Positions 36,301-37,957 of a stretch of 64,000 nucleotides of DNA are shown in pieces. Made by a program: the position numbers and the translations under genes. Source of the DNA: Dictyostelium discoideum (Eukaryota); NCBI GenBank assembly GCA_000004695.1, contig CM000151.3:4224001-4288000 (forward strand), written 5' to 3'. The notes below the pieces were generated by a model. It worked only from the letters and a program-made list of their open reading frames with translations. It did no database searches and was not told the DNA's origin. The first letter of the stretch is position 1, and each line of letters starts with the position of its first letter.

Positions 36301-36491
36301 TGATGATGACCACTACTCTTCTTTTTAAAATCACTACTATTATTTATTAAATATTCGGTTGAATAATATTGTGATGTTATTTTAAATGTTGATCTATCAA
36401 TTACCAATGATTCAATATTTGAGTTTGTAGATGTATTAACTGAATTTGCTGGTTTAACTACGATTTTATCTTTTAATTGATAAATTGACAT
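33363..36491 (-). CDS. SAC-domain phosphoinositide phosphatase of about 1015 aa, Sac2/INPP5F-like with an hSac2-type region after the SAC domain, join(35543..36491, 33363..35458) on the minus strand
   Basis: ATG at 36489-36491. The SAC N-lobe has AYGIVGIINLLSGPYLIVITGKQLIGSFGGKYIYRIENCNLILIS and FYWNKHLQTNLIQGGFYNWVLPLIRG. A GTATGT donor at 35542 (phase 1) pairs with an AAAAAG acceptor at 35459, giving an 84-nt intron. The splice yields LPLIRGYVEIINFFIERNDIEFLLISRRSKFRAGTRYNTRGSDHNGNVANYVETEQII, which is collinear with Sac1. The catalytic CX5R(T/S) motif RTNCLDCLDRTN and IKLAWANNGDAISFQYAGT are present. A Ser/Thr/Asn-rich C-terminal extension follows. Confidence 0.85.
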
Positions 36492-36530
36492 AACCCTATA
36501 TAATTCTAAATAATATATGTATGAATTTTA

Positions 36531-36650
36531 ATATTATTATTATTATTATTATTATTATTATTATTATTATTATTATTATTATTATTATTATTATTATTAT
36601 TATTATTATTATTATTATTATTATTATTATTATTATTATTATTATTATAT
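36531..36650. repeat. (ATT)n of about 40 units filling the 173-bp gap between the acidic-protein gene and the SAC gene
   Basis: Perfect att repeats. Confidence 0.9.
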
Positions 36651-36664
36651 AGAAATAAATAATT

Positions 36665-37957
36665 TTAAAAATATAAATTTATTTTTATGTTTAACATACC
36701 ATGATATTTAACTTTAAAATCGAATTTTTGAGAAGATTTTAGACCACCACTACCACTCATACTTGCTCTAGTATTTCCATCCATTGAAAAACTACCTCCA
36801 AAATTAATATTACCACTACTACCATTGCTAAAGTGTAAATCGCTCATATCTTCAAATGTTGAAAATTCATTACTTACTTCATCTCCACCATTATTTATAT
36901 CATTATTATTATTATTATTATTATTATTATTATTATTATTATTATTATTATTATTATTATTACCACCATTTAAAAATACATTATTATTATTATTATTATT
37001 ATTATTATTATTATTATTATTATTATTATTATTATTATTATTATTATTATTATTACTATCCATTTCAAATTCAAATAAATTTGAGCCACCATTATTACTA
37101 CTATTACTATCAGTTTGTAAATCTGATGTTAAACGATCAGTACTTCCCATTTTATTATTAAAAACTTTTAATAAATTTGAACTATCAGATGGTGGATATG
37201 ATGACATAACTTTACTTGATCCAAAAATTGAAACTGTTGGTTTAATACCCTCATCTTCATATGTTGTATATACATTATTATTATTATTATTATTATTATT
37301 ATTATTATTATAATTATTATTACTATTATTATTATCTATTTTTTTATTTGTTTCATTTTCATTTTCACTTTCACTATCCGAATAAATTGTTTGGGATGGT
37401 GAGAGTGGTGGTGAATTTAAGTGTAATTTATTGGATATATCACTATCTACATCGTTATTTTTATCCTTATTTTCATTATCGTCTTCATCAATATCTTCAC
37501 CTTCTTCATCATTATCATCATCATCATCTTCTTCTTCTTCTTCTTCTTCTTCATAATCATCATTTAATTGTGAATTTAAGGTTGAAGGAGGTGGTGGATG
37601 TTGAATATATACAATATTTTCTTTTGCGATTGTCAATGTTGACCTATTATTAATTTTATTTCTAATTTTAATATCATTATTGATTTGTTCTTCTTCGTTA
37701 ATATCATCATCTTCCTCCTCTTCTTCTTCTTCTTCCTCTTCCTCCTCTTCCTCTTCTTCCTCCTCATCTTCTTCATCTTCATCTTCATCTTCTTGTTTAT
37801 ATGTTTTTGGAGGGAGTGGAGGAGGAGGTGATGAAGGAGGAAAATCATTTATTGTTGGTGGTGATGTTGATTCTGTAATCCTTCTATTACCAATTGTAAT
37901 AGATGGTCTTGGATTTCCTCCAAAATTTGCACTAGATGAAAGTTTGAATGAACTCAT
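36665..37957 (-). CDS. Acidic low-complexity protein of 430 aa with poly-E/D, poly-N and a Pro-rich N-terminus, function unknown
   Basis: ATG at 37955-37957. A continuous ORF ends at TAA 36665. It consists almost entirely of (GAA)n, (GAT)n and (AAT)n coding repeats. The stop is followed by a GTATGT that could splice in-frame into the SAC gene ATG (see findings). Confidence 0.5.
   Translation of the reverse strand: MSSFKLSSSANFGGNPRPSITIGNRRITESTSPPTINDFPPSSPPPPLPPKTYKQEDEDEDEEDEEEEEEEEEEEEEEEEEEDDDINEEEQINNDIKIRNKINNRSTLTIAKENIVYIQHPPPPSTLNSQLNDDYEEEEEEEEDDDDDNDEEGEDIDEDDNENKDKNNDVDSDISNKLHLNSPPLSPSQTIYSDSESENENETNKKIDNNNSNNNYNNNNNNNNNNNNVYTTYEDEGIKPTVSIFGSSKVMSSYPPSDSSNLLKVFNNKMGSTDRLTSDLQTDSNSSNNGGSNLFEFEMDSNNNNNNNNNNNNNNNNNNNNNNNNNVFLNGGNNNNNNNNNNNNNNNNNNNNDINNGGDEVSNEFSTFEDMSDLHFSNGSSGNINFGGSFSMDGNTRASMSGSGGLKSSQKFDFKVKYHGMLNIKINLYF

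Follow-up and report, generated by a model that had tools for sequence, protein, structure and literature searches.

Mammalian Sac2/INPP5F acts on PI(4)P as a 4-phosphatase in the endocytic pathway (PMC4395491, PMC4395482), and it has in common with the predicted product described here the pairing of Syja_N with an hSac2 domain and the CX5R(T/S) motif CLDCLDRT. Counterparts among the dictyostelids were recovered by a search with the Sac region, which returned orthologues from Polysphondylium violaceum (P0001, 1071 aa; CYY_005004, AJWJ01000189.1), Tieghemostelium lacteum (P0002, 1052 aa; DLAC_04650, LODT01000022.1) and Heterostelium album PN500 (P0003, 1177 aa; PPL_11180, GL290995.1). Literature searches yielded nothing specific on a Sac2/hSac2 gene of Dictyostelium or on its DDB_G identifier. 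With respect to gene structure, a precedent is provided by D. lacteum DLA_11596/DLA_04629, adjacent gene models that were merged after RNA-seq, an outcome that is routine when dictyostelids are re-annotated from transcripts (PMC5282741). That locus resembles the present one in that two adjacent in-frame ORFs proved to be one gene; it differs in that a merged model of the gene considered here is already public, the split having arisen from a reading of the raw sequence.

The analyzed stretch of Dictyostelium discoideum chromosome 2 (64,000 nt, hereafter the window) carries two neighboring reading frames on its minus strand. ORF A (37957..36665) encodes an acidic, poly-Asn-rich, low-complexity product of 430 aa that ends in ...KVKYHGMLNIKINLYF*, with in-frame TAA TAA codons located just 5' of its ATG at 37957. 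The downstream frame, referred to as the SAC gene, was assigned an ATG at 36489..36491 and would on its own encode 1014 aa. The original prediction correctly described the 430-aa ORF, the distance of 173 bp between its stop codon and the SAC ATG (36491), and a repeat of ~40 copies in the gap; it treated two separate genes as the default and suggested that the two might be joined by read-through or fusion, or through an alternative first exon. Our analysis points to a different arrangement, in which ORF A and the SAC gene constitute a single three-exon minus-strand gene, and we put the probability of this reading at roughly 0.93. Elsewhere in the window, the region 25771-27255 on the minus strand matches DDB_G0274685 / XP_644065.1 of strain AX4 exactly, and another ORF clusters with XP_644077.1, a COBW protein of AX4.

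In the three-exon model, exon 1 (36700..37957, minus strand) starts at ATG 37957 and spans 1258 nt, that is, 419 codons plus one base, ending in ...KVKYH + G. Intron 1 (36506..36699, minus strand) is 194 nt long, in phase 1, and runs from GTATGT to TTTAG. Its 5' splice site (36694..36699) lies in the exon/intron context CATG|GTATGT, and its 3' splice site AG (36506..36507) in the context ATTATTTAG|AATTA. The final 11 codons of the 430-aa ORF, together with its stop codon, are intron 1 sequence. Exon 2 (35543..36505, minus strand) opens with AA TTA TAT AGG GTT ATG (E-L-Y-R-V-M), leads into the beginning of the Sac N-terminal subdomain and low-complexity inserts, and ends in ...PLIRG + T. Intron 2 (35459..35542, minus strand; 84 nt, phase 1, GTATGT...AAAAAG) separates it from exon 3 (33363..35458, minus strand), which encodes the remainder of the Sac catalytic domain with CLDCLDRT, the hSac2 domain and a low-complexity C-terminus and contains the stop codon. 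With both introns removed, the computed translation remains open over 1438 codons with a single terminal stop, and the spliced junction 36700|36505 reads AAATATCATG|AATTATATAGGG, giving the peptide ...KVKYH-ELYRV-MSIYQLKDK. The phase-1 in-frame splice proposed earlier (G + AA = E, then LYRV and MSIYQLKDK) was thereby reproduced, as was the distance of 14 nt between the acceptor AG and the SAC ATG (36505-36492). Both splice sites had also been recognized correctly, but were misplaced: the donor CATG|GTATGT begins at 36699 rather than at about 36676, 23 nt away and outside the interval 36480-36680 assigned to the event, and the AG of ATTTAG occupies 36507-36506, one base off from 36508-36507.

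The GC content amounts to 3.6% in intron 1 and 8.3% in intron 2, as compared to about 26–31% in the exons (25.6% in exon 1) and 10–13% in the flanking spacers. Upstream of exon 1 lies an AT-rich spacer of 1.18 kb (37958..39138, 13% GC), common to this gene and a divergent plus-strand gene at 39139, and this spacer is likely the promoter region of the whole gene. Transcription would start within this ~1.2-kb spacer, and the spliceosome would take out intron 1 (36699-36506) and intron 2 (35542-35459), yielding an mRNA for a 1438-aa phosphoinositide phosphatase of the Sac2/INPP5F type with a disordered, fast-evolving N-terminal extension of ~424 aa. Both the constitutive splicing of the two introns in vivo and the location of the transcription start are inferred.

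Profile searches matched the downstream part of the product to PF02383 (Syja_N, SacI homology domain) over the full profile (1-305; E 5.4e-81) and, C-terminal to the Sac domain, to PF12456 (hSac2; E 3.1e-23), and the translation of exon 3 contains the catalytic CX5R(T/S) motif RTNCLDCLDRTNLVQ. The closest relatives of solved structure are yeast Sac1 (3lwt, 4tu3; E about 1e-76) and Fig4. Judged by its sequence, the predicted product is a Sac2/INPP5F-type Sac-domain phosphoinositide phosphatase with putative PI(4)P phosphatase activity. ORF A, by comparison, contained no Pfam domain, and a search of 1.84 billion representatives found no stand-alone relatives, returning seven weak matches (E 7e-5 or weaker) confined to an acidic, Pro-rich, low-complexity stretch. 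An exact product look-up placed the 430-aa ORF A on no recorded gene, and the same held for the 331-aa frame running from the ATG into intron 2. The 1014-aa SAC-alone and 1438-aa fusion products likewise gave no exact match; a 1438-aa product is nonetheless annotated at the locus.

The non-dictyostelid homologues that were retrieved start no more than about a dozen residues from the internal Met encoded at 36491, close to or at the N-terminal strand of the Sac domain, whereas the window product carries ~424 residues before this point. Since these homologues begin so close to the internal Met, the extension appears to be specific to dictyostelids. Within the latter group, all three orthologues carry an extension of ~190–280 aa in front of the Sac strand M.I..LKDKI on the same polypeptide. 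The residues at the boundary are conserved as well: KYH|ELYRVM in the window corresponds to SYH-DLHQIM in P. violaceum, NYF-ELHQEM in T. lacteum and NYH-ELHQEM in H. album, and the internal Met itself is present in four of the four dictyostelids compared. A Sac-domain query returned no orthologues from the D. discoideum group, despite the annotated D. discoideum product, and a junction-spanning query of 133 aa found no match in a search that also missed this annotated D. discoideum protein.

To locate the orthologue introns, annotated proteins were mapped to their genomic loci, so that the positions given below derive from gene predictions that are possibly not independent of one another. Intron 1 of P. 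violaceum reads CAT G|GTAAAT...(64 nt)...ATAG|AT TTA; its counterpart in H. album is CAT G|GTAAGT...(72 nt)...TTTAG|AA CTA. Both agree with intron 1 in the window in the codon that is split and in phase. P. violaceum CYY_005004, which is 61% identical to the window product over the Sac and hSac2 region, also shares the SPSITIG motif, the junction YH|DLHQIM and both intron positions, including that of intron 2 at LIRG|YVEI. It differs in having an extension of 204 aa, as compared to the 419 aa that precede the junction in the window, an intron 1 without the microsatellite, and one extra intron absent from D. discoideum. H. album PPL_11180 likewise combines the extension and the junction NYH|ELHQEM with the G|AA codon split in phase 1, and has eight annotated introns versus two in the window gene. 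The public model of PPL_11180 looks mis-predicted around RGCMLKLHQQK. The T. lacteum gene DLAC_04650 has the same architecture and a conserved NYFELHQEMF, but no intron at this site: the sequence GCA AAC TAT TTT GAG TTA CAT CAA GAG ATG TTT is continuous within an exon that encodes aa 1-390. In this species, the extension and the Sac domain are therefore parts of one polypeptide without any assumption about splicing.

The case for a single gene rests on the position and phase of intron 1, the junction peptide and the intron-less orthologue, and not on similarity between the extensions. In composition-corrected BLASTP, the best match of exon 1 to the orthologue extensions had an E of 0.3–0.8 and covered an N-terminal motif of 22 aa, which is weak when taken alone; strong matches obtained in uncorrected BLASTP were discarded as low-complexity artefacts. 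The short N-terminal motif reads PSITIGNRR in the window and SPSITIGSGR, NITIGVR, VKIGQR and SVTIGQR in orthologues.

These comparisons bear directly on the notion of a transcript that joins two tandem genes. A conjoined-gene or read-through chimera requires independent partners, and this explanation was rejected since the counterpart of ORF A in the orthologues is always the N-terminus of a Sac protein. The extension in the orthologues, the shared position and phase of the intron and the existing annotations identify ORF A as exon 1 instead. Similarly, the earlier remark that there is almost no promoter space between the two frames was accurate as to the 173-bp gap but not as to its intergenic nature: the promoter space seems to be missing because these 173 bp are intron and not spacer.

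The splice signals of intron 1 agree with this assignment. The last exon base is 36700 and the first intron base 36699, with the donor CAT G|GTATGT. Over the 4.6 kb of the gene, the sense strand contains the pattern GTA[AT]GT only three times; two of these occurrences, the only GTATGT hexamers, are the two intron donors. Donors of the GTAAAT, GTAAGT or GTATGT type are found in the orthologue introns and in intron 2 of this gene. Within the gap separating the two frames, an orthologue-like junction is produced by the acceptor AG at 36507-36506 and by no other AG. A second AG, ending at 36496, was rejected as an acceptor: it is in frame with the weak donor GTTAAA (36695) only, and the resulting junction HGMVM is unlike that of any orthologue. 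Preservation of the reading frame, by contrast, was dropped as an argument because 14 of the 30 GT..AG pairs in this stretch are in frame and open, which is explained by most GTs occupying the same codon position. Taken as a whole, intron 1 displays the features of a U2-type GT-AG intron, namely a GTA[AT]GT-type donor, an AG that follows an A/T-rich tract and an ORF restored by splicing, together with species-typical length and composition and a position and phase common to orthologues. Published D. discoideum introns have a mean length of 132.6 bp and a median of 104 bp (PMC4683709), against which 194 nt is unremarkable. On the comparative and annotation evidence, from which splicing is deduced, the 194-nt gap is an ordinary phase-1 GT-AG intron at an ancestral position.

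Two further public assemblies of D. discoideum were compared over the neighborhood of DDB_G0274685. The gene annotated in GCA_054883475.1 extends beyond the SAC ATG as well as the stop codon of ORF A and runs off the end of the locus; its product of 1438 residues equals the spliced model in length. Intron 1 is identical there (194 nt), and splicing of the locus sequence with both introns gives 1223 aa that are identical to the tail of the model and end exactly at the annotated gene end. In GCA_054859355.1, the annotated product comprises 1372 aa, and intron 1 is 101 nt long with the same GTATGT and TTTAG ends and four AAT copies, flanked by conserved exon sequence that includes ...KVKYH|ELYRVMSIYQLKDK. 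A SAC gene on its own would account for 1014 aa, well short of either product; both lengths are taken from gene predictions, which may in part have been lifted from one another. A merged single-gene model is thus already known from public annotation, on the basis of these two other D. discoideum annotations and not of the AX4 model. Read-through of intron 1 would append GMFS* in GCA_054859355.1 versus GMLNIKINLYF* in the window, so that even among D. discoideum isolates the end of the 430-aa ORF differs.

Under the default of two independent tandem genes, ORF A would end at TAA 36665-36667 and be polyadenylated, a separate promoter within the 173-bp (AAT)n spacer would drive the SAC gene, with translation from ATG 36491, and the flanking GT..AG would be coincidental. 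Several observations fit this arrangement: ATG 36491 opens the Sac N-terminal subdomain, close to where the non-dictyostelid homologues begin, an AATAAA is present in the 173-bp spacer, and in-frame GT..AG pairs are, as described above, common in the stretch. It is nevertheless extremely improbable, being contradicted by the three orthologues, which carry the extension and the Sac domain on one protein, either with an intron that matches in position and phase or in a continuous ORF, and by the public products of 1438 and 1372 aa at the locus. The read-through tail that varies within the species and the lack of stand-alone homologues of ORF A speak against it as well, and a spacer of 3.6% GC, for which the corresponding intron in another isolate measures 101 nt, leaves little room for a terminator and a promoter.

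A single gene could also give rise to additional isoforms beside the main spliced mRNA. In organisms with short introns, alternative splicing commonly takes the form of intron retention. The 430-aa acidic protein would result if intron 1 were retained or the transcript were polyadenylated within it, for which the AATAAA found in intron 1 of both alleles could provide a signal. Initiation at the internal Met 36491, through an intronic transcription start or leaky scanning, would in turn yield a 1014-aa Sac-only protein, in line with the conservation of this Met in the four dictyostelids and its proximity to the start of the non-dictyostelid homologues. We consider such isoforms unlikely: a single conserved Met is weak support, AATAAA is expected by chance at about 4–10% GC, and a retained-intron tail that differs between isolates argues against a selected product.

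The repeat within intron 1 (36528..36648; AAT in the sense of the gene, TTA/ATT on the plus strand) was resolved by Tandem Repeats Finder as a period-3 array of 40.3 copies with 98% matches. The 40 AAT copies in the window compare with four in GCA_054859355.1, and without the AAT tract intron 1 of the window would measure 73 nt, as compared to 64 nt in P. violaceum and 72 nt in H. album. The tract is a polymorphic microsatellite that has expanded within intron 1 in AX4-type genomes. Its length, varying from 4 to 40 copies between isolates, might conceivably tune the efficiency of intron 1 splicing or its retention and shift the balance between the 1438-aa phosphatase, the acidic product truncated to 430 aa and, perhaps, a Sac-only protein initiated at the internal Met, although we regard such an effect as highly doubtful. 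If it did occur, (AAT)n variation would be a natural polymorphism affecting the expression of a PI(4)P phosphatase.

Overall, the gap between the two frames carries little biological weight; it represents an ordinary intron of a single, already annotated gene. A more general implication is that genes whose N-terminal exons are long and of low complexity are split when a sequence is read by its ORFs, and that an "intergenic" gap in D. discoideum should be taken as an intron if it follows a GTA[AT]GT hexamer and is both very short and extremely AT-rich. The analysis also yielded two modest by-products, namely a tenfold difference among isolates in the copy number of an intronic microsatellite and evidence for a long disordered extension common across Dictyostelia, in which the short conserved ..ITIG.R motif could be a functional site.

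The (AAT)n microsatellite within intron 1 of the phosphatase gene (window 36528-36648) is strongly polymorphic in copy number among D. discoideum assemblies. Approximately 40 copies, within an intron of 194 nt, were found both in the window and in assembly GCA_054883475.1 (locus L004, about 655-780), while assembly GCA_054859355.1 (locus L005, 748-848) carries 4 copies in an intron of 101 nt. The splice sites of intron 1 are identical across the long and short alleles in all three sequences. The annotated product of the whole gene (window 33363-37957) also varies between isolates, at 1438 versus 1372 aa (L004, L005). 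Alignment of the window model with the partial L005 product gave 90% identity with 103 gap positions, and therefore length variation extends to the low-complexity tracts within the coding sequence (poly-E/D, poly-N, GS and poly-T).

Exon 1 contains a perfect GTAAGT hexamer (window 36872-36877, minus strand; codons GTA AGT, within ...DEVSNE...), located 178 nt upstream of the real intron 1 donor. As a phase 0 donor it would not keep the reading frame when joined to the acceptor at 36506, and it is therefore presumably unused. Upstream of the gene, a 1.18 kb spacer (window 37958-39138; GC content 13%, containing long stretches of A and of T) separates the phosphatase ATG from a divergent plus-strand poly-Asn gene starting at 39139, and is likely a bidirectional promoter region. 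ARAGORN found no tRNA genes across the whole 64-kb window (1-64000).

In the public H. album model PPL_11180 (GL290995.1; locus L003, about 5690-5930), one exon reads RGCMLKLHQQKQQNNK followed by RSKFRAG, with boundaries that do not resemble GT..AG, and the model lacks the conserved YVEI.NF...F.LISRR segment; this exon is probably mis-predicted in the annotation. Two EukProt dictyostelid models, P0004 and P0005, look like truncated or mis-spliced versions of the same orthologue: P0004 starts within the Sac domain, and P0005 passes from ...YTPKYYG directly to DPEQNLDCLVINR, with the ELHQEM..LKDKI strand absent.

Residues 1-26 of exon 1 (window 37880-37957, minus strand) carry the short motif RPSITIGNRR, which is conserved in dictyostelid orthologues as SPSITIGSGR, NITIGVR, VKIGQR and SVTIGQR. 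It could serve for docking or as a site of modification; outside it, the N-terminal extension is disordered and evolves fast. At the start of the Sac N-terminal strand, the internal Met (window 36489-36491, minus strand) is kept in all four dictyostelid sequences compared, and homologues from outside the dictyostelids begin no more than about a dozen residues away. This pattern is compatible with the internal Met being an ancestral start codon that would now lie behind a lineage-specific extension.
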